Part shown: positions 14,730-64,000 of the stretch, one piece after another
How the letters are laid out: each line of letters opens with the position of its first letter
Position numbering within the stretch: position 1 is the first letter of the stretch
From: Lytechinus pictus
Taxonomy: Eukaryota
Length of the DNA stretch: 64,000 nucleotides
Reading direction: 5' to 3'
NCBI RefSeq assembly: GCF_037042905.1
Contig: NC_087251.1
Span: 44,022,001-44,086,000, forward strand
Position numbers and translations under genes: made by a program
The notes under the pieces: generated by a model
What the model was told of the DNA's origin: nothing
The model's database searches: none
The model's input: the letters and a program-made list of their open reading frames with translations, nothing else

Positions 14730-14824
14730 TATCTATCTAATCATATCCGTCTATCTATCTGCTATCTATGTTATAAATCTATCTTTCTATCTATCTATCT
14801 GTCTGTCTATCTACCTACATGACA

Positions 14825-14857
<33 letters not shown>

Positions 14858-15683
14858 CTCTGTCTCATATATATCTATCTGTTTGAATATGTCTCTCTCT
14901 CTATCACTCTATCTATCCATATGTCTGGCTGTCTGTCTATCTACCTACATTGTATATCTATCTGTCTATCTATCTCTCTCTCTCTCTCTCTGTCTAATAT
15001 ATATATCTATATGTTTAAATATGTCTATCTATCTATCCATCTATCTGCCTGCCTGTCTCTATCTATCTATCTATAGTATGTCTGTCTGGCTATCTATCTA
15101 TTTCTCTAATATATATCTATCTGTTTGAATATGTCTATCTTTCTATATCAATCTATCTGTCTCTCAGTCTCTCTCTCTCTCTATTTATCTATCTATCTAT
15201 ATGTCTGTCTGTCTGTCTATCTATCTGTATATCTATCTATCTATCTACCTACCTACATGATATATTTATCTATCTATCTTTCTATCTATCTATCTGTATG
15301 TCTGTTTGTCTGTCTCTCTATCTATTTTCTATATATCTATGTTCTATCTATCTTTCGTATATCTCTCTGTTTGAATATGTCTATCGATCCATTTATCTTT
15401 CAATCTAATATATTATATATTTATTCGTTTCAATTATTATGTATGTTTATCTATCTATCTTCTATCAATCTATCCACCTATATTTTATATATCATCCATC
15501 TATCTATCCGACTATCTATTAAATCTGTTTAATATGTTATTCTATCTGTTTATCTATCAATAAATATATTGATATATTTTCTGTCTGTCCATCTGTGTAT
15601 ATATAATATCATCATCATCTTATTTGTCATCAATCATTATTATCATCATCCTTATCATCATTGTAATTTTTGTCATCGATCAT

Positions 15684-15714
<31 letters not shown>

Positions 15715-16860
15715 CTATCTAATGTCTATCTATCTAATATGTATTTATATGTTTTTGTATATACAGTGTGTCTCTAAAAAAAGTAAACCCAACTTCAACG
15801 GCAAATTTTCAGAAAACTAAAAAATATTTACACATTATTTTTTCATGGTTAGATAGTCCAATAAGTCTTTTGTCCAATTACATAACTTAGGTTATCTAAC
15901 TCTCATGCATGACTGAGCATGATTCAACTTAGTGAACTGGTGTCAAATCATCACTGTGGCAAGTTATTTCTTGTTATTTTCATGCATTCAAGGCCTATTT
16001 GAAGTTAAACTCAGTGGTTCCGTGATCAGCATACTGTCTCACATTGTACCAGATGGCCCTTTTGTTGGAGGCTGCCTCTCGGAGAACTGCACCCGAAAAG
16101 CCTCTTGAACTTCCACGAAACTTCTTGTTTCCTGGTATTGAGTTACCAGGAATACTCTCTGCTCAATTGTCAACTGTACCATGTTTGGAAAGCGTGTGAA
16201 GTGTGCCTGTGTTAGGAACAACCTTTGCTGAAGTTGTTATGAAATTATAGGCCTAACATGTGACCAAAATTTAACTTCAAATAGGCCTTGAATGCATGAC
16301 AATAGCAAGAAATAACTTGCCACAGTGATGATTTAATCATAGGCCTAACATGTGACAAACATTTAACTTCAAATAGGCCTTGAATGCATGAAAATAACAA
16401 GAAATAACTTGCCACAGTGATGATTTGACACCAGTTCACTAAGTTGAATCATGCTCAGTCATGCATAAGAGTTAGGTAACCTAAGTGATATAATTGGACA
16501 GAGGACTTATTGGACTATCTAACCATGAAAAAATAATGTGTAAATATTTTTTAGTTTTCTGAAAATTTGCCATTGAAGTTGGGTTTACTTTTTTTAGAGA
16601 CACGCTGTATATATCTCTATATCTATCTATCGATCTATCTTGTCTATAGTCTATATATCAAGATATAATTTATCTACCTTTCTTCTATTAATCTATCCAC
16701 TTATCATTTATCTCTCCATCTATCTATATCTATCTTTCCTATGTGTATCTATTTAAATATATGTATGTTTATCTGACTGTCTATTTATCTTTCAATCTTA
16801 TATCTACTCATTTGTTTAAATAATTATGTATGTTTATCTGCTAGTATAAATTTATCTTTC
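14730..16860. repeat. Degenerate (CTAT)n/(CTGT)n microsatellite field, split by a Tc1/mariner derivative
   Basis: Direct reading of TCTA/TCTG repeats; explains the spurious YLSI-rich ORFs. Confidence 0.95.
15764..16607 (-). mobile_element. Internally deleted Tc1/mariner element with long TIRs (about 245 bp) and a transposase N-terminal HTH remnant
   Basis: TA|CAGTGTGTCTC...GAGACACGCTG|TA. Minus-strand MVQLTIEQRVFLVTQYQETRSFVEVQEAFRVQFSERQPPTK(fs)RAIWYNVRQYADHGTT from ATG 16182 resembles DUF4817-type HTH domains of Tc1/mariner transposases. Confidence 0.88.
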
Positions 16861-33189: not shown

Positions 33190-33324
33190 ATTGTGACAGT
33201 GTTGACATATTTGCCAAGATGAATAGTTACTATCATCATCCACCGATTAAGACGGAACCTGTATCGCCAGATGCAGATCTCTTTGCGGTGTATCTCAAGG
33301 ATCTTATGATAGGGGATCATTGTG
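33190..33324 (+). CDS. Rel: Optional Rel exon: alternative first exon from ATG 33219 (MNSYYHHPPIKTEPVSPDADLFAVYLKDLMIGDHC) or symmetric 135-nt cassette exon from 33190
   Basis: Open frame with coding-like composition and a GTGAGT donor at 33325 in phase 1. The upstream TAG ending at 33189 keeps the frame with the 7003 exon, but its pyrimidine tract is weak. Confidence 0.65.
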
Positions 33325-35239: not shown

Positions 35240-35250
35240 GGGGATTCCCC
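35240..35250. promoter_or_regulatory. Palindromic 11-bp kB site GGGGATTCCCC
   Basis: Identical to the classical MHC class I-type kB element; lies in unique intronic sequence. Confidence 0.5.
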
Positions 35251-40204: not shown

Positions 40205-40377
40205 GTGGGCTATCACCAATTGGTCCCACACGAGCTACTTCCGAGCCGCATATTGAGGTAACAGAGCAACCGAAACAAAGGGACCATCGATTCCGCTACC
40301 CGGTAGAAGGTCGCCAGGCTGGGAGCATCGCCGGGGAAAGATCTACGTCTGACCTTCCATCATACCCAACAATTAGG
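40205..40377 (+). CDS. Rel: Rel exon: RHD N-terminus and DNA recognition loop (GLSPIGPTRATSEPHIEVTEQPKQRDHRFRYPVEGRQAGSIAGERSTSDLPSYPTIR)
   Basis: Pyrimidine tract + CAG acceptor, GTAGGT donor, RHD signature sequence. Confidence 0.96.
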
Positions 40378-41409
40378 GTAGGTTCATTTGAAATGCATTC
40401 TGGGATAGGAAGAATGGATAGTAGTCGTAATAATGCTTATCACTGGAAAATGTGTTCCTATGCGCTCTTTGAAAAAGACAGAAAAGAAATAAGAAAAGAT
40501 TGAAAATTGCTGGCAATGGTAGCACTAACTCATTGAAAATAAATATATTAAGTATGTTTTCATGGTAGATTTAAATTTGGGTGTAGAATAGTTCTTTACA
40601 TACCATGGGGTGGTATTCTAAAGTTAAGGTGCAGCATAGGCAAAGGATCATTCTCCATAAAACTTGGTCTAAAAACTAGGACAGTGTAAAAGATCCTTCA
40701 GAGCTGATCTAAGATTGCAAGGTGGTACATACTTTTAATAAAACCTTTGCTAAAATATTTTGGAGCGATTGCTGTGAGACACTGATAAGCTAGAAGCACT
40801 ACTTAAAACTTTACATGCGACTGGCAAAGATTGTCTCATTTTGTATCTATTAATTTAAAAGTGCAGTAAATGAAGACATCTATTACTTTAAAAGTGCAGT
40901 AAATGATGACATTTTCTGATGGAAAATGTTTATGACATGGTGACATGGTGAAGTGGATATTACTGGAAATCAAATGTGTGGGTGAAACTAAAACATCTGA
41001 CCAGTCTCTCAATTTGCCTAATGGAGGATTTAGAACCTTTCCGTTGTCCAAGGGTTGACAGTCAAAACTACTATTGACCGCATAAATCTGATGTGCTCAT
41101 TGTAACCTGGGAAATTGGAACGTTTTTTTTTTCAAATACGCATTCAATGAATCAAAGCTCCTGCTAGTACTTGATGCAAGTTATTGGAGTTGTAATCTTT
41201 TTCAGTATGATTATTCGATTTTCAGAGACATAAAATTGTTAATTCTTGTAAATAATTAATTTCTTTTGATAAAAATGGGCCATTCTAGGAATGAAGTGTC
41301 TTAAAATTGAATTGAATCCAACCAAATGGAAATATGTTGCTATCGGTTTTAAATCATCTGTTTAGATGTTTGATAATATGCTCCATGAAAATGTTGTATT
41401 TGTTTTCAG

Positions 41410-41558
41410 GTTGCCAATTTGAATGGTCGAGCCAGGGTAGTGGTATCCTTGGTGACGAAGACTGATCCTCCCCAGCCTCATCCCCATCGTCTGGTCGGAG
41501 ATAACTGTAAAGATGGCGTCTGTGTCATTATGATCGATCCACAAAGACCCGAAGCAGT
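41410..41558 (+). CDS. Rel: Rel exon: RHD (VANLNGRARVVVSLVTKTDPPQPHPHRLVGDNCKDGVCVIMIDPQRPEA)
   Basis: TTTTCAG acceptor, GTAAGA donor, SLVTK/PHPH.LVG/C.DG.C motifs; phases 0 and 2 fit the neighbours. Confidence 0.96.
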
Positions 41559-41610
41559 GTAAGAAACTAATATCCTTTGTACCATGTAAATTGAGGTGAC
41601 TGCTTCTTAA

Positions 41611-41945
41611 AGGGATGGTCCGGGCTGAAAATATTTATATCTTAATACATAGAGTAGAATTCACTGAGCAAAATGCCGAAAAAAGGTGAAAACAGTCGTC
41701 TTGAATATTCATTAGGTGGGCTGATGATGTCACATCTCCACTTTCCGTTTTCTTATGTTATTACATAAAATCATAATTTTTTCATTATTTCATACTTGTG
41801 TGAATAATATGTCTCCCTTATAATGAAATAAGTTGCAGCAATAAATATCTAATGCACTAAATCAGTTGTCATTCCAATTTTTCTACTTCTTGGAGGAAAA
41901 ATTTGAATAAACTTCATTACATATAATAAAATACAAAAGAACAAG
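41611..41945. mobile_element. Truncated TTAA-type MITE (AGGGATGGTCC family)
   Basis: TTAA|AGGGATGGTCCGGGCTGAAAA start; inverse paralogue of 50107-50729. Confidence 0.75.
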
Positions 41946-42344: not shown

Positions 42345-42742
42345 ATGGGAGACGTGGGCGAAGCTTTTTTGACAGCGGGAGCAGCATCATCACCATCAAA
42401 AGCATAATCTAAGGTTACGTAGTTGAAAAGTCATTGTAACTTTGAAAGACGAAGATCCTATTTCATGAAAATTAACTACAAATGTTTTTTTTCAGAACGA
42501 TCATTATGATCATAGGCATATGATGAAAAAAAATATTTTTGCCAGGATAGGATAGTACAGACATCCAATTTTTTCGTATTTTGCTTCTTGTTGTGCAGGG
42601 TTTTTTTCCACACCTCTTCTCATTTCTTTGCAATATGAATACTATATCTGCTCTGAGCAAGAAAGATCGCTTGCTATTTTAAACTTGTCATTTACGTAAA
42701 CTTCATAATTACCATACATGCATTCCATTGCAAAGAAATAAA

Positions 42743-43003
42743 AATGATAATGATATTGATGATGGGGATGATGATGATGATAATAATGATGATGGTGATA
42801 ATATAGATAATGGTGGTGATGATGATGATAATGATAATGATAATGATGGTGGTGGTGATGATGATGATGATATTGATGATGGTGATGATGATGATGATGA
42901 TAATAATATTGATGACGGTGATGATGATGATGGTGGTGATGATGATGATGGTGGTGATGGTGATGATGGTGGTGGTGATGGTGATGATGAAGATGATGAT
43001 GAC
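42743..43003. repeat. (GAT/GGT/AAT)n microsatellite
   Basis: Direct reading; source of the poly-D, poly-I and poly-S ORFs. Confidence 0.95.
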
Positions 43004-43157
43004 AACATCTTGAACAGCAGCAACATTGGATTTATAAAGTGCTATTTTCAGAGGATACATAACACATTATAACCCTGGCTTTAGCTTTGCACTTTGTGTA
43101 CCCCTCATAAACCATCATCAGAACACCTGATTATCGCTTTACTTTGTATTTATACAG

Positions 43158-43399
43158 CTTTCGTAAGATTGGAGTGCAGCGAACGATGAACAAAGAAGTG
43201 GAGAACTCGCTTGCAGAGAGAAAGAAAGCCAATGTCAGACTCTCCATGGAAGTAAATAAGGGAAAGACTGGGAAGAAACACAATTACGAGATGAAGGCTG
43301 TTCGACTCTTCTTTGAAGTCTACATTGAGACAAGGGAATCATCCGGCGTCTATGATAGGTATCTTACACCTATCACATCAAGTCCCATCTATGACAAGA
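43158..43399 (+). CDS. Rel: Rel exon: RHD (FRKIGVQRTMNKEVENSLAER...AVRLFFEVY...PITSSPIYDK)
   Basis: TACAG acceptor, GTGAGT donor; matches ORF 43144..43449; F..LGIQ-like, VRL.F and S.PIYD motifs. Confidence 0.95.
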
Positions 43400-46956: not shown

Positions 46957-47052
46957 AGGATACGGTATTGTCTATCTGTCGTGTGAATACCAATACTGGC
47001 AGCGTGGAAGGTGGTGATGAACTCTTCATCCTATGTGAAAAAGTTCAGTCGG
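46957..47052 (+). CDS. Rel: Rel exon: start of IPT/dimerisation domain (KDTVLSICRVNTNTGSVEGGDELFILCEKVQS)
   Basis: T-rich TAG acceptor, GTGAGT donor, L.ICR...GS..GGDE.F.LC.KVQ motif. Confidence 0.96.
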
Positions 47053-47547: not shown

Positions 47548-47642
47548 ATGATATCAAAGTGAAATTCCATGGGAAGGACCCAGAGACAAACCAACCCTGG
47601 TCAGCGTTTGGTGAATTCAGTCCAAGTGATGTTCACAGACAG
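47548..47642 (+). CDS. Rel: Rel exon: IPT domain (DDIKVKFHGKDPETNQPWSAFGEFSPSDVHRQ)
   Basis: TTTCAG acceptor, GTAAAT donor, DI.V.F...W...G.FS..DVHRQ motif. Confidence 0.96.
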
Positions 47643-48978: not shown

Positions 48979-49123
48979 TTTGCCATTGTCTGCAAGACGC
49001 CTCGCTTTGTGAATCAGAACATCAAGGCTGCAGTGGAGGTTAGTTTTCACCTCTACCGACCGTCGGATGATGATTCGAGCATGGACATGACTTTCACCTA
49101 CAAGCCACGGGAATCTGTCCTTG
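48979..49123 (+). CDS. Rel: Rel exon: end of IPT domain (FAIVCKTPRFVNQNIKAAVEVSFHLYRPSDDDSSMDMTFTYKPRESVL)
   Basis: TTTCTCAG acceptor, GTAAAT donor, AIV..TP, RPSD and FTY.P motifs. Confidence 0.96.
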
Positions 49124-49801: not shown

Positions 49802-49897
49802 GACTTGGAGATATTGAGAAGAAAAAGAGAAAGCTGTCTCACAAGCCACCAGAAGAATACAACAGATATTTCGCCAACAGTGGCCGACCAGTCAAGA
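49802..49897 (+). CDS. Rel: Rel exon with the nuclear localisation signal (GLGDIEKKKRKLSHKPPEEYNRYFANSGRPVK; NLS at 49819-49833)
   Basis: TTTACAG acceptor, GTAAGT donor, basic cluster just after the IPT domain as in other Rel proteins. Confidence 0.93.
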
Positions 49898-52151: not shown

Positions 52152-52304
52152 CGGAGACCCTTGGAGCGAGTGCCCAATCCTGCAGTGGTGCTCCATTAAG
52201 TCATCCAGTATCCAATGCACCATCCACCCTCTCATTAACACCGGTTACCATGACAATGCCATCAACAGACACCAGACGAAGTCTGCGTCAGCATCTCATG
52301 AGAG
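52152..52304 (+). CDS. Rel: Rel exon: Ser/Thr/Pro-rich linker (TETLGASAQSCSGAPLSHPVSNAPSTLSLTPVTMTMPSTDTRRSLRQHLMR)
   Basis: TGTAG acceptor, GTAAGG donor, symmetric phase 1-1, open frame (ORF 52127..52360). Confidence 0.85.
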
Positions 52305-53062: not shown

Positions 53063-53610
53063 GGGACCCATCTCTTGGTGTGAGTGATGACCCCCAGGCT
53101 CTTTTTGGTGACTTCACATTCACCGGCGGCACCGCACAGGTACAGGATACCAACAACATACCGGTCACCTACACAAGCGGAGCCCACATGAGCTCCAGCA
53201 CCGTGACGCAACATCAGCACCAGCCAGTGAGCACCGACCAAGGTACCCTCGATATCCCACACGAAGCATTTTTGAGGTCCCTGGCGACGGCTCAACCGAT
53301 GGAGGAAGATTCCGTCGATGAGGAACGCACCACCAGCCTTCAGAGAATAAACGCCATAGCTTTTGAGCTCATGAGTTCGTCTGCAGGCGTGTCTGGAGGG
53401 GCCACCGGAGGCGGTGAGCGCGTTATTGTCGAGCCAATGCCAGATACTGCATCTCTGAATGATTTAACATACAGTGTTCTGGAAACAATAGACATTGCTG
53501 CCTACCAGGACGTCGGAAGTGATATCGTATTTAGCACATTTGAGGGCTCCGATACGGAGAGAAATAATACAAGCAACAGCAACAATAGCAACAATAATCC
53601 GATGGGATAG
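53063..53610 (+). CDS. Rel: Rel terminal coding exon: acidic putative transactivation region ending ...NNSNNNPMG*
   Basis: CTCTCATTTAG acceptor, phase 1, long open frame (ORF 52987..53610) with GC-richer codon-like composition, TAG stop. Confidence 0.88.
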
Positions 53611-57830: not shown

Positions 57831-58207
57831 TGTAAAGAATATTTTGGATGCTGATAGCTAGTCTTGTTATTCTTCTTTTCTCTCGAAATGTGGATGGTTT
57901 TTTTATACAGCTAGTTATGTTTGCAGCTGTTATGATTAAATATCTTAATATATTTACTTTGAAAAGTACAGGCCCCATGCCTTTCTACAAAGCACCCGGG
58001 GGGGGGGGGTAGGGGGTATATGTGTTCTTGCACACACTCACTGGCCAGGTTCTGTGGAGAGGTCTTCCTCAGGCTATCTGAAGATGCATTTCTATTATTG
58101 ACACTATTTCTATTATTGACACTTGTAAATGTTAACTGAGGACGTCCTTATTTAAAGGTTCCTATTCAAACGTGTCATTGACTCCTAAATGTATATGTGT
58201 CAATATA

Positions 58208-58970
58208 AGCTCTCTTATTTTCTTTTTTGCCTCCTTATTCCTCTTCCTCCCTGTCTTTCTCTTCATCTCTTCTCCTTCCTTCCCTCCTCCTCTTCTTCTT
58301 TTTCTTCTCCCTCTTTTCCTCCTGCTTCTTCTCTTCTTCGCCTCCTTCTTCCTCTTCTTCTCCTTCCTCTTTTCCTCCTTCCTCTTGTTCTTCTCCGGCC
58401 TCTTTTCCTCCTTCGTTTCCTCCTTGTTCTTCTTCCTCTTTTCCTCCTTCCTCTTTTTCTTCTCCGGCCTCTTTTCCTCCTCCTTCTCCTCCTTGTTCTT
58501 CTTCCTCTTTTTCTTCTCCGGCCTCTTTTCCTCCTTCGTCTCCTCCTTCCTCCTCTTCTTCTTCCTCCTCTTTTCCTCCTTTGTCTCCCCCTTCTTCTTC
58601 TTCCGCTTCTTCCTCTCTTCTTTTCCTCCTTCGTCTCCTTCTTCATCCCCTTCCTCCTCTTCTTCTTCTTCTCCCTCTTTTCCTCCTTTGTCTTCCCCTT
58701 CTTCTTCCGCTTCTTCCTCTCTTCTTTTCCTCCTTCCTCTTTTTCTTTTTCGGCCTCTTCCTTCTTCGTCTCCTTCTTCCTCCCCTTCCTCCTCCTTCGT
58801 CTCCTCCTCCTTCTTCCTCCCCTTCCTCCTCCTCTTCTTCTTTCTCTGTTCCTCCTTTGTCTCCCCCTTCTTCTTCCTCTCTTCTTCTCCTCCATCTTCT
58901 TTTCTTCTTCTTCTCCCTCTTTTCCTCCTTCATCTCTTACTTCTTCTTCCCCTTCTTCTTCTTCCCCTCC
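58208..58970. repeat. About 760-bp polypyrimidine/polypurine (CTT/CCT) low-complexity tract
   Basis: Almost exclusively C/T on the + strand; source of the spurious S/F/L/P and R/K/E ORFs. Confidence 0.97.
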
Positions 58971-60794
58971 TGGATAAGAGAGAAAAATTAAATCCGGCCT
59001 CCAGTTCTATCTCCTGTCCCCAGATTCTTTCCAATCATGACATCCGCTGCCTTCTCATGACCTAATAAAATCAGTGTTTTTCATACTATTGTGTTTCAAC
59101 AGTTCAATTATTCAGTTTATTTTTTTCCAACTTAATACATATATTGAATTTCAAATTACATTAAATAATTTTTTTAATTTGTATTCCAGTTAATTGTTAT
59201 AAAAATCATCCTCGACAAAATTATTCAGATTATTTATTCAAATGTTCAGTTTTATAAGGCAGTCTATCCCAACAACGAATTTATTTTAATTAAAGAAAAA
59301 TGAAACAAGCATAGTTACGGAAGCTTTTGTGCCATTGAGGGCGAGATGATTTATCAAGTCGACAGAATGACTGTTAATGTCAAAATGGGGAGCTGCGTTT
59401 TCATCTCGGCCGTTGTATACTGATCCCTTTAAGTTCTTCCTCCTCCCTTTTTTCCTTCTTATATTCACATTTCGATCCTTCTCTTTCTCCCTTTTCCGTC
59501 TTCCCTATCTCCCCCCCTCTCCGTTTCCATCCTTTTCCGTCTTCCCTATCTCCCCCCTCTAGCTCCGTTTCCATCCTTTTCCTAATTTGTCTGTCTGTCT
59601 CTCTCCTTTCCCCTCCTTTTTCTCTCTCCTTTTCCCTTTTTGCTTTCATTTTATTTCCGGAGGGGGCGCGGGGGGGGGGGGGGGCACCAAGGAGGCCCCA
59701 GGCCCAAATGGATATGTGCATGCAGATCATTGATGCATGATTCCTTTTATTTCTTAATATGTTGTCATGATGTCCATGACAATGTTGGTAATGTCGATGA
59801 TGACGTCGACGACGATGAAGAAGTCAATGATTTCGATGGCATTTATACTTTTAACTGTTAGTGAGATCATTACTTAATGGTTAAATACATGTATCTCCAT
59901 ATATACCTATTTGATTGATGAAAGAATATGATACTATGATGGCAAAGATGGAAATTGGAAATTTTGATGTATTTAACAGATCAATTGACCTGGTGAGTTC
60001 TGTGTTCTATATGCACGACTTTACCTGCAAAACGATTTGTTATGTAAAAATAAACTTCAGAATGATATATCCCAAATTGTACGTTTATTATTTTCAAAAC
60101 AAATGGATCCCTTCCATAGAATTAATGAATAGGGAAGTGACCAAAATCATTGTTTTCCTTCTCTTATTATTGTCTGGTAATATTGAATCAAACCCAGGCC
60201 CAAAATTTAAGTTTCCATGTGGAAACTGCGAAAAGTCAGTAAAATCAAATCAGTGCGGCCTTCTTTGTTCCACTTGTAAAAGATGGTATCATATTCACTG
60301 TCAAGAAATAAGCCTGGAAATATATTCAAATTTATATTTGAGCCCCGATGAAGAATGGTTTTGTTCAACCTGTTTTTTACCATCTTTCTGTGAATCTTTA
60401 TTTGACGACTACAATAATACTATTGTAAACTGTGAGAAAGAAATTCGGGTACCCGAAAACATTCCAGAGCCAAATTTACAACAAAAAAACTCGAAGGATT
60501 CAAGTTTACTTTATCCAGATTTTGAAAACATATCTGCTGTAAAAGGTCTTCACTTTGTACATCTAAATGTTAGATCTATTCTACCAAAAATTTCAGAACT
60601 TCGAATTCTATTTAAGAGAAAGAATCTTGCAGTCATTGCTTTCACAAAAACATGGCTAAATGACTCGGTGAATGATGAAGAAATCAATATAGATGGATAC
60701 AAAGTAATACGCAATGATAGATTATCAGGCTCTGGGGGTGGTGTATGTTTTTATGTCAGAAACGATATTGCATTCAATATCATAGATGTTTTAA

Positions 60795-61376
60795 AGGACA
60801 AGTCCACCCCAACAAAAAGTTGGTTTGAATAAAAAGAGAAAAATCCAACAAGCATAACACTGAAAATTTCATCAAAATCGGATGTAAAATAAGAAAGTTA
60901 TGACATTTTAAAGTTTCACTTAATTTCACAAAACAGTTATATGCACATCGTGGTCGGTATGTAAATGAGGAGACTGATGACGTCATCCACTCACTATTCC
61001 TTTTGTATTTTATTATGTGATATATGAAATATTCTAATTTTCTCCTCATTGTCAAGTGAAACAATGATTAATTCCTCCCTGAACATGTGGAATTAGCATT
61101 GTTTAATACTATATGGTTTAGTCAAGTTTGTCCTCATTGTCAAATCTGTAAAAAATGAAATATTGTATAATTCAAACAATAAAAAACAAAAGAAATATTG
61201 AGTGATGGACATCATCACTGAGTTGTGCATATCACTGTTTTGTGAAAAATAGCGAAACTTTAAAATACCATAACTTTCTCATTTTACATCCGATTTCGAT
61301 GAAATTTTCGGTGTTATGCTAATTTGATTTTTCTCTATTTATTCAAATCAACATTTTTCTGGGGTGGACTTGTCCT
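60795..61376. mobile_element. TTAA-TSD MITE inserted into the LINE endonuclease domain
   Basis: TTAA at 60791-60794 and 61377-61380; removing the element restores ...NIIDVLSTSDSESLWINLLLPRSKPIIAGVIYRPP. Confidence 0.93.
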
Positions 61377-62030
61377 TTAAGTACAAGTGATTCTGAATCA
61401 CTGTGGATTAATTTGCTTCTACCAAGATCAAAACCAATTATTGCTGGCGTCATTTATAGGCCTCCGAAAAGCAATCAATTTATTGAGAAGATGTCAAGTA
61501 TTCTCGATACATTAAAGAAAGATGATGAAATTATACTTTTAGGTGATTATGAATGTTTGTCTTTTTCAGAAACCTCCACTGGCTAAAACTTATACTGACT
61601 TATTGAGTCTTCATGGATTTAGCCAACTCATCAAAGATGCAACCCGTGTCACACACACATGTTCTTCTTTATTGGACCATGTTATTTGTAATAACAAACA
61701 AAAAATAAGTCAAAGTGGTGTTATTGATCTTGGTATAAGTGACAATTCTTTTACTTTCTGTACATGAAAGAAAATTAGGCTGGCTATAGGTGTTCACAGA
61801 ACCACTGATATTAGATCGTTGAAAAAATATAGCGAAGAATCTTTCAATCTTAAACTGTCTGCCGTTGATTGGTCAGATTTAACACTGACGTAAATAAAGC
61901 TTGGTCAGTTTTTCAAAATACTTTTATTTCAACGTTGAATATGATAGCGCCTCAAAAACGGATTAGAATTAAACAGAGATCAGAAAACTGGATGACTAAA
62001 GATATTATATCTCTTATTCGAGAAAGAAAT

Positions 62031-62557
62031 CCCGGGGGGGCACTCGACCAAAAAAGTGGTAGGGGCCGCGGGCGAGACAAAAAACTGGGGCCTTGGAGCG
62101 GGCTTATTGTAAAAAGGAGGGTCCTCGGAACGGGCTTCGGAACTACAATTTTGTGAAAACGGGGGTCCTTGGAACGGATCGCCAGCGTGCGAGTACGTGC
62201 GTATGTACCCCTATGGAACGGGCATGCGTGCATGATGCAGCTATACGCGGCCTCCGCTGGGTGCGCTAGCGCAGAGACGATGGTCGGACAGCGCTCGGCG
62301 GCCGCTTTTCACCAAAATTGCAGCAGATCGATGCGACCGGAACGGCGTAACGAAAAATATGCGAAGCTTTGGAGCGGATTTCTTTCTTTTTTTTTCTCGA
62401 TAAGAACAAAGTGCTATGCCTTGGAGCGGCTTTCTTTGTTTTTTGTCTCGATAAGACAAAAATGCTATGCCTCGGAACGAAAATTTGAGTGTGAAAATGG
62501 GGGTCCCCTCCGCGGCACATACCCACTATGCATTATATACTGAGTGCCCCCCCCGGG
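62031..62557. mobile_element. GC-rich MITE with CCCGGGGGGGCACTC TIRs and 8-bp TSD, inserted into the LINE
   Basis: TSD AAAGAAAT at 62023-62030 and 62558-62565; removing the element restores ...ISLIRERNVAYKKRKK. Confidence 0.92.
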
Positions 62558-64000
62558 AAAGAAATGTGGCGTATAAAAAAAGGAAGAAAAATCTAAGCGA
62601 TGATGATTATGACACGCTTTCTAAAAGATACAAGAAATTAAGAAATATGGTTCAAAGAGAGGTCACCTGAAAAAAGGCCAAATCAGAATACCTACAAAAT
62701 AAAATAGAAGAAAATAAAAATGATTCTAAAAGACTTTGGCAGAATCTAAATAGTTTGGGATTAAAAACGAGAAATGGAAAGGACCAAGAATTAGTCGTTT
62801 CAATTGACGGAGAATTATATCATGATAAGATAACTATTTCCAATGAATTCAATTCCTATTTTACAAATGTCGCAGCTACGTTGGTAGATAAACTTCCATC
62901 TTGCAAAGACATTTTCAGTGCAGACAGTGAGAACATTCGTGAATTTTATGAAAAAAAAGTATAAGCCAAGATAAATTTGAATTATTACCTGTTATAGTGA
63001 TCAATTCATTTTTAATGAGTTGCGTAAATTAGATGTATCAAAAAGCACTGGATTTTTGATACCTGCTAAATTTCTAAAAGAAGGAGCAAAGAGTTTGTAC
63101 AAACCATTGAATTTCTTGATAAATCTCTTTATCTTTACTAGCACATTCCCAGAGGATATGAAAATTGCAAAAGTAACTCCTATTCATAAGAAGAAAGATA
63201 AAACTGCTGTTGAAAACTAAAGACCTATCAGTGGTTTAAGCATAGTATCCAAAATTCTAGAAAAGGCGGTATGTGTTCAGATCGAAAAATATTTTAAAGA
63301 AAATGATATGATTTACGAATATCAGTCTGGTTTTTGACATGACTATTCGACTGAGACATGCCTTATTCACTATCTGAGAACTAATATTTCTAAGGGACAA
63401 TTCGTTCGGATGGTACTCCTAGATCTTCAAAAAGCATTTGATACAGTTAATCATGGCATCTTATTGAAAAAAATACAAATAATGGGTTTTAACCAGGCTA
63501 CTGTAGCATGGTTCAAATCCTACTTGTCGAATCGACATCAAGTAGCGGCTATTCGCGATATTCGTTCCAAAATTATGCCTATAACGTGTGGAGTTCCACA
63601 GGGAAGTATTTTAGGCCCAATTCTATTTTCAACTTATATCAATGACATGTCTATTTGTATAAAAGCTGACTGTAAATTATTATTGTATTTAGATGAAAGC
63701 GTACTACTTTGTTCAAATTCCAACCCAAAATTTGTTGAGGAAAAACTTAGCGAACAGCTGTCTACATGTGTCGATTGGATGACTGATAACAGATTATCGT
63801 TACACTTAGGCAAAACCGAGAGCATTCTGTTTTGTTCTAAAAAGTAATTATAAAACTTCATTTGAATTTGAAGTATCATACTATATTAAGATAATTCAGA
63901 GGAAAGAATCTGTAAAGCATTTAGGCATTGATTTTACTAGCTCCCTTTCATTTCATCTTTAGTAGAATCAATCGTAAAAAAGGCGAATGCCCGTTTGAAA

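Follow-up and report, generated by a model that had tools for sequence, protein, structure and literature searches.

A sea urchin class II Rel protein with valine in place of the redox-sensitive loop cysteine and changes at DNA-backbone contact positions

Judged by alignment with RelA, sea urchin Rel keeps the residues that read DNA bases while the positions that contact the DNA backbone are enriched for changes, among them the loss of the recognition-loop cysteine C38 (residues at contact positions are numbered as in RelA unless stated otherwise). The gene analysed here lies in a 64,000-nucleotide stretch of Lytechinus pictus DNA (the window); it is a p65-like (class II) Rel gene that is intact and expressed, and its loop reads RFRYPVEG. 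We give a rough probability of 0.55 to the reading that the protein still recognizes kB half-sites by means of a rebuilt grip. On this prediction a phosphate contact would fall to Arg120, and neither oxidation nor alkylation of thiols at the C38/C120 pocket would affect the subunit.

Mapping the protein back onto the window places the gene on the + strand between 33219 and 53610, in ten exons separated by nine introns, all of them GT–AG (Table 1). The reading frame encodes 600 amino acids, lacks internal stops and is identical to P0048 (XP_054758205.2), recorded as 'putative transcription factor p65 homolog [Lytechinus pictus]', which was the best match (100% identity) in a protein search with exon 2 that gave 4 matches from 8 candidates. 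Exon 2 by itself matches positions 1–42 of the Pfam RHD_DNA_bind family (E 2e-12), and the full protein carries both the DNA-binding (PF00554, E 1e-49) and the dimerisation (PF16179, E 4e-36) domains of the RHD. A KKKRK stretch after the RHD aligns with the KRKR-type stretch of other Rels and is a putative nuclear localization signal; residues 481–600 form an acidic tail (20 D/E versus 5 K/R), and a Pfam family search gave no ankyrin family match in the protein. Two family searches located three RHD loci in the genome: Rel itself, a p105-like NF-kB gene on contig C18 that retains the loop Cys (GCEG) and an NFAT5 locus on contig C2 that reads RTEG in the loop. No second, canonical class II Rel paralogue was found in these searches, which scored the best candidates only (7/7 and 8/8). 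We rejected a class I identity (p105, p100 or Relish) for the gene in the window on three grounds: its loop runs on as RQAGS and is not of the HGG type, the ankyrin match is absent and the class I gene sits on C18.

Table 1. Exons of the Rel gene and features of its DNA-contact loops, in window coordinates
Feature	Coordinates	Strand	Remarks
Exon 1	33219..33324	+	Coding, with ATG
Exon 2	40205..40377	+	RHD start, recognition loop L1; also Q73 (RelA S42, 40315–40317) and P87 (RelA K56, 40357–40359)
Asp-His preceding the loop	40282..40287	+	Common to sea cucumber Rel with Cys intact
Loop L1, RFRYPVEG	40288..40311	+	R64, R66, Y67, E70 (RelA R33, R35, Y36, E39) kept; P68 at K37; V69 at C38
Exon 3	41410..41558	+	RHD N-terminal domain; D124 at RelA K93
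Exon 4	43158..43399	+	RHD N-terminal domain, loop L2; K189 at RelA N155
Loop L2, RTMNK	43180..43194	+	Replaces RelA C120-V-K122-K123-R124
Exon 5	46957..47052	+	Dimerisation domain; K252 (RelA K218) kept; S255 at RelA K221
Exon 6	47548..47642	+	Dimerisation domain; R286 (RelA R246) kept
Exon 7	48979..49123	+	End of dimerisation domain
Exon 8	49802..49897	+	Basic KKKRK at the position of the Rel nuclear localization signal; role inferred from position
Exon 9	52152..52304	+	Low-confidence, likely disordered C-terminal region
Exon 10	53063..53610	+	With stop; acidic tail, likely transactivation region; without ankyrin repeats

Elsewhere in the window, kB-like sites occur at five distinct places, which is near chance (shuffled sequences average 3.4 matches); one of these, a near-palindromic kB-type site in Rel intron 1 (35240–35250), could be autoregulatory. 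Downstream of Rel lies a fragmented LINE-type retrotransposon (59915–63844, + strand) with a PHD finger (E 4e-5) and a reverse transcriptase (E 5e-22) in separate frames. Dispersed intronic repeats (40560–40735 and 41606–41650) show very high depth, with loose ends, in DNA contigs and RNA reads, and low-complexity simple-repeat tracts (14777–15817, 42683–43069 and 58136–59062) yield long spurious open frames.

Exon 2 aligns with RelA without gaps, which sets Val (GTA, 40303–40305) opposite C38 and Pro opposite K37; a His codon (CAT, 40285–40287) precedes the loop. The Cys at position 6 of RFRYxCEG, a feature of canonical thiol-regulated Rel/NF-kB proteins, is absent, and translation, alignment and transcript agree on the Val that had been predicted from the window alone. 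A spliced contig of run X1 spans 40205–40376 and 41409–41558 with no other letters and shows the Val codon rather than a Cys codon, which rules out an assembly error there. Stranded RNA reads (X21 and X22) lie over exons 2 and 3 at mean depths of 2.4 and 5.2 on the Val codon, three reads in each cross the GT..AG splice joint 40376>41409, and no difference at the Val codon is among the table rows listed for the RNA reads. Over exon 4 lie reads of X21 and X22, those of X23 in part, and an organism B contig; loose ends extend into exons 3 and 5. The Arg151 codon (protein numbering) is CGA in the window and CGT in the RNA reads, Arg either way. Assembly error, a private allele and a pseudogene therefore retain practically no probability: the contig has no mismatch, five other urchin proteins carry the same residues and motif, the 600-residue frame and its nine introns are intact and transcribed, and the Arg151 change is silent. 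The intact frame and splice sites, from which the original prediction had argued against pseudogene decay, thus stand.

To place the loop among known contacts, we used the base contacts (R33, R35, Y36, E39, R41 and R187) and backbone contacts (Y36, C38, S42, K56, K123, R124, K218, K221 and R246) given for RelA in the accessible part of PMC11161749. Our profile alignment combined the best 150 of 1,697 representative matches with 8 added proteins (158 in total); Relish and NFAT were not recognized among those best 150. R33, R35, Y36, E39 and R41 are identical in 6/6 urchin proteins, and position 187 is Lys in the urchins, as in 89/111 other Rel representatives. For the backbone test we excluded R246, at which urchins retain Arg and no residue reaches 60% of the column, leaving eight conserved positions. 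Five of these eight carry rare residues in urchin Rel (C38V, S42Q, K56P, K123N and K221S), against 23 of 144 conserved columns (Fisher p=0.003), whereas the sea cucumber control shows one of eight against 17/144 (p=0.64). Taken singly, the 111 other Rels have no backbone change in 94 cases, one in 12, two in 4 and four in 1. Although so many altered contacts might suggest a protein that no longer binds DNA and works through protein contacts alone, as a decoy or co-activator, we consider this very improbable: all 14 contact columns, base readers included, are invariant across the six urchin proteins, the deepest pairs of which are only 75–78% identical, against 181 of 282 columns overall (p=0.002, an optimistic value since the sequences are related), and this is the only class II Rel found in the genome.

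The loss of C38 is real, then, but the original description of it as a change in a single loop residue was too narrow, because backbone contacts have been rebuilt more widely, in a second loop as well (C120R, K122M and K123N). Loop L2 lacks the C120 and the K122-K123 patch of canonical thiol-regulated Rel and has R, M and N at 120, 122 and 123; among the 111 other Rel representatives, 107 have Cys in the C38 column and 109 have it in the C120 column. Further urchin changes near DNA are K93D, N115K and N155K, the last common to sea cucumbers. The acetylation sites K122, K123 and K221 are lost. After the L2 helix, at about residues 168–188 of the urchin Rel P0002 (exon 4), a Pro conserved in 110/111 other Rels is lost and the segment is Lys-rich in sea urchins, with an uncertain model (pLDDT 57–76).

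These losses may simply be uncompensated, so that the homodimer binds poorly and Rel serves as the transactivating half of a p50-anchored dimer; the Cys loss would then be a by-product and no redox adaptation. We hold this to be possible but unlikely. K56, K93, K122, K123 and K221 are all gone, the p105 loop is canonical, and the dimer-face residues that we checked are RelA-like. Against this reading, basic residues have been gained near the contacts (protein positions R151, K146, K189 and mostly R145), the net RHD charge of urchin Rel is +2 to +7 compared with −3 to +2 in other echinoderm Rels, and the new states are invariant in 6/6 urchin proteins. In RelA, neutralizing K122/K123 reduces DNA binding, according to the accessible part of PMC11266062, and a mutant combining R187K with a loop-L2 swap is severely defective, according to that of PMC11161749; by analogy, binding by urchin Rel may be weak.

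The alignment with echinoderm and other Rel, NF-kB and NFAT RHDs shows RFRYPVEG, with Val at C38, in 6/6 sea urchin proteins (L. pictus, L. variegatus, Strongylocentrotus purpuratus, Diadema antillarum, D. setosum and one protein placed inside the urchin clade), a sample without a named cidaroid or irregular urchin. Cys is retained in the Rels of the sea star Acanthaster, the brittle star Amphiura, the crinoid Anneissia and the hemichordates Ptychodera and Saccoglossus. Three Rels of the sea cucumber clade (P0116, P0243 and P0244, one named Apostichopus japonicus) read DHRFRYPCEG, with Asp-His and Pro present and Cys kept, so His and Pro are older than the Cys loss and not tied to it. The His before RFRY had been put forward as an NFAT-like trait that accompanies the missing Cys; it is indeed common with the NFAT5 of this genome, but we rejected it as a sign of Cys loss, because 3/3 sea cucumber Rels pair it with Cys. 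The same sea cucumber proteins have rare DNA-contact changes of their own (R124 to Ala, R246 to His and an altered AGA loop end).

An IQ-TREE tree of 33 RHDs (277 columns), with p105/p100 as outgroup, recovers the Rel clade with full support (100/100) and joins urchin Rel to sea cucumber Rel as sisters (86/82); deeper nodes are weak, including echinoderm Rel monophyly (53/41). On this topology the change was made in two steps: Asp-His, Pro37 and Lys155 arose in the ancestor common with sea cucumbers, and the urchin stem then gained Val38, Arg120 and Asn123 and lost the lysines. That stem measures 0.71 substitutions per site and is followed by short branches. General fast evolution was rejected as the cause, because sea cucumber Rel, on a stem of the same length (0.71), shows just the one backbone change in eight.

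A long stem followed by short branches might also be expected if altered L1 and L2 had changed the preferred site, for example in central-base selectivity or towards NFAT-like single half-sites. In the accessible part of PMC11161749, swapping the KKRD patch of RelA altered central-base preference, and urchin Rel matches the NFAT5 of its genome in His32, in Asn123 and in carrying a beta-branched residue at 38 and a basic one at 120. A shift in specificity, which the original prediction had raised, is nonetheless distinctly unlikely: every base reader of loop L1 is unchanged, which leaves little support for a new core site, the sea cucumber stem reached the same length without these changes, the overall sequence and fold are far nearer to RelA than to NFAT, and the match with NFAT5 (Thr, Lys and Asn at 38, 120 and 123) was noticed post hoc on a weak profile alignment of the exon (E 0.002).

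Val38 goes together with particular residues at 120 and 123. According to the accessible part of PMC6950227, C120 sits near C38 where DNA is contacted, and Y36 and N155 belong to the same pocket. Across the 158 proteins (best 150 of 1,697 matches plus 8 added), 147 have Cys at position 38, seven have Val, three Ser and one Gly. Val38 is paired with Arg120 and an amide at 123 in 7/7, although these seven cases represent two lineages only; Arg120 occurs in no other protein of that set, and all three Ser38 proteins retain Cys120. Cys-less loops also appear in the Rel-like P0166 (ENA), with Ser in the loop and 4/8 backbone positions changed; in P0067 (Frankliniella fusca), of whose two RHDs the first has Ser and the other Gly; and in a further lineage, that of the hemichordate proteins P0147 (Ptychodera flava) and P0189 (Glandiceps talaboti), in which an RHD with Ser at C38 is fused, unusually, to ZU5, UPA and Death domains.

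The seventh Val38/Arg120 protein is P0100 (XP_071955940.1) of the crinoid Antedon mediterranea, annotated as uncharacterised, which groups with crinoid Rel (99.8/100). A tree constrained to unite it with the urchins is 23 log units worse (p-AU 0.068), and 28 worse (p-AU 0.026) once columns 38 and 120 are removed. A shared origin is thus disfavoured, with a borderline rejection that falls below 0.05 only when the two columns are dropped, and the urchin and Antedon states are probably convergent. This protein (P0100/P0216) has a weak N-terminal DED match (E 5e-4) below the Pfam cut-off.

The recurrence of this arrangement and its likeness to NFAT suggest a broader idea, which we offer tentatively and regard as doubtful: that a second, thiol-free backbone clamp of the RHD, in which the side chain is beta-branched at 38, basic at 120 and an amide at 123, arose three times, as T/K/N in NFAT, V/R/N in urchin Rel and V/R/Q in crinoid Rel, and that in urchins it would keep Rel working in naphthoquinone-loaded immune cells. 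Lys120 and Asn123 of NFAT5 are also kept in human NFATs; the literature that we searched yielded nothing relevant on DNA contact by NFAT residues at 38, 120 and 123. Urchin Rel is itself no misnamed NFAT or NFAT chimera. It falls within Rel in the tree, shares 43% identity with RelA (E 1e-64, against 1e-3 to NFAT), and NFAT5 is a separate gene on C2. In an AlphaFold model built from a 97-sequence alignment, the RHD is confident and the tail low; the structures closest to the model are RelA–DNA complexes (E 1e-33, TM 0.81–0.83), with NFAT chains at TM 0.42–0.57.

Under our preferred reading of a rebuilt grip, in which both pocket cysteines (C38 and C120) are replaced along with several lysines that bind the backbone, Arg151 of the protein (RelA 120) would supply a phosphate contact in a Val/Arg/Asn arrangement, and the subunit would be indifferent to oxidation or alkylation at the replaced pocket. 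We further infer that Rel pairs with the p105/p50 product. As p105 keeps its Cys, such a Rel–p50 dimer would be thiol-sensitive on the p50 side and the heterodimer just half protected. Several observations count against this reading: the published resistant mutants are Cys-to-Ser, with a side chain that can hydrogen-bond as Val cannot; five Cys are left in the RHD of urchin Rel; and P0166 alone also has four of eight backbone changes. As for why urchins should have lost the Cys, we can only speculate that naphthoquinone pigments are the reason. The accessible part of PMC10096920 reports that red spherule cells of urchins contain the naphthoquinone echinochrome A and that an extract of Arbacia red cells reduced the DNA-binding activity of human p65 in a cell assay, which shows no direct thiol effect.

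C38 is regarded as nearly universal in Rel/NF-kB proteins and is a target of S-nitrosylation, glutathionylation, sulfhydration and alkylating inhibitors, according to the accessible part of PMC11266062. Natural losses are known: Ser in Relish and in one Nematostella allele, and Thr in NFAT (PMC2751831). The alignment published in 2009 (Figure S1 of PMC2751831) has sea urchin NF-kB and NFAT and omits sea urchin Rel. We found no description of the urchin Rel loop change in the text of the open literature, and an earlier remark in a figure or a subscription journal is possible; the accessible parts of PMC13043383, PMC5660111, PMC13673367, PMC3630861 and PMC4583530 do not mention the urchin loop, and a literature search for RYPVEG matched solely a phage-display peptide paper. 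The Rel gene as such is already known and carries an annotation, and public databases contain its S. purpuratus counterpart. A Cys-less Rel loop is already known in kind, and what we did not find described is the Val form in a class II Rel, which is real and lineage-wide in the urchins sampled.

A whole lineage that includes a standard model of immunity appears to run the sole class II Rel found without C38, C120 and K122/K123/K221. Urchin Rel offers a ready test of the purpose of the thiol and of whether, as proposed in 2009, losing it requires other residues to co-evolve. In sea urchin experiments, NF-kB inhibitors directed at C38 may fail to act on the Rel subunit and, if the clamp idea is true, the thiol-free arrangement would provide a natural model for a p65 that withstands oxidation and alkylation.

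Compared with known systems, urchin Rel shares with class II Rels (RelA/p65, c-Rel, RelB and Dorsal) the two Ig-like RHD domains, the NLS-type basic stretch, the acidic tail, the lack of ankyrin repeats and the base readers, and differs from them in C38V, C120R, K122M, K123N, K56P, K221S, S42Q, K93D and N115K. Its sister orthologue, Aj-rel of the sea cucumber Apostichopus japonicus, has the same Asp-His, Pro37, Lys155 and short KKD linker but keeps C38, C120, K56, K122, a basic 123 and K221. The Antedon protein is like it in Val38, Arg120 and an amide (Gln) at 123, and unlike it in keeping K56, K122 and a basic 221, in having Asn at 187 and in a C-terminal tail that is almost absent. NFAT proteins (NFAT5/TonEBP and NFATc) likewise have His before the loop, a beta-branched 38 (Thr/Val), a basic 120 (Lys/Arg) and Asn123, a resemblance confined to these four positions; urchin Rel has neither the HRAxYxTEG loop nor the NFAT-type RHD.

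The nearest precedents for natural loss of the position-6 Cys are insect Relish and the Ser67 allele of Nematostella NF-kB (PMC2751831). Both are class I proteins with a Cys-to-Ser change that takes one base, the anemone case being a polymorphism, whereas urchin Rel is class II, has a Cys-to-Val change that takes at least two bases and is invariant in the sampled urchins, and has also lost the second Cys. For such loops it was proposed that loss of the Cys is tolerable only with co-evolved changes; in Nematostella, Cys-to-Ser abolished the DTT and NEM responses, yet other residues mattered too and the native Ser protein was still partly NEM-sensitive (PMC2751831).
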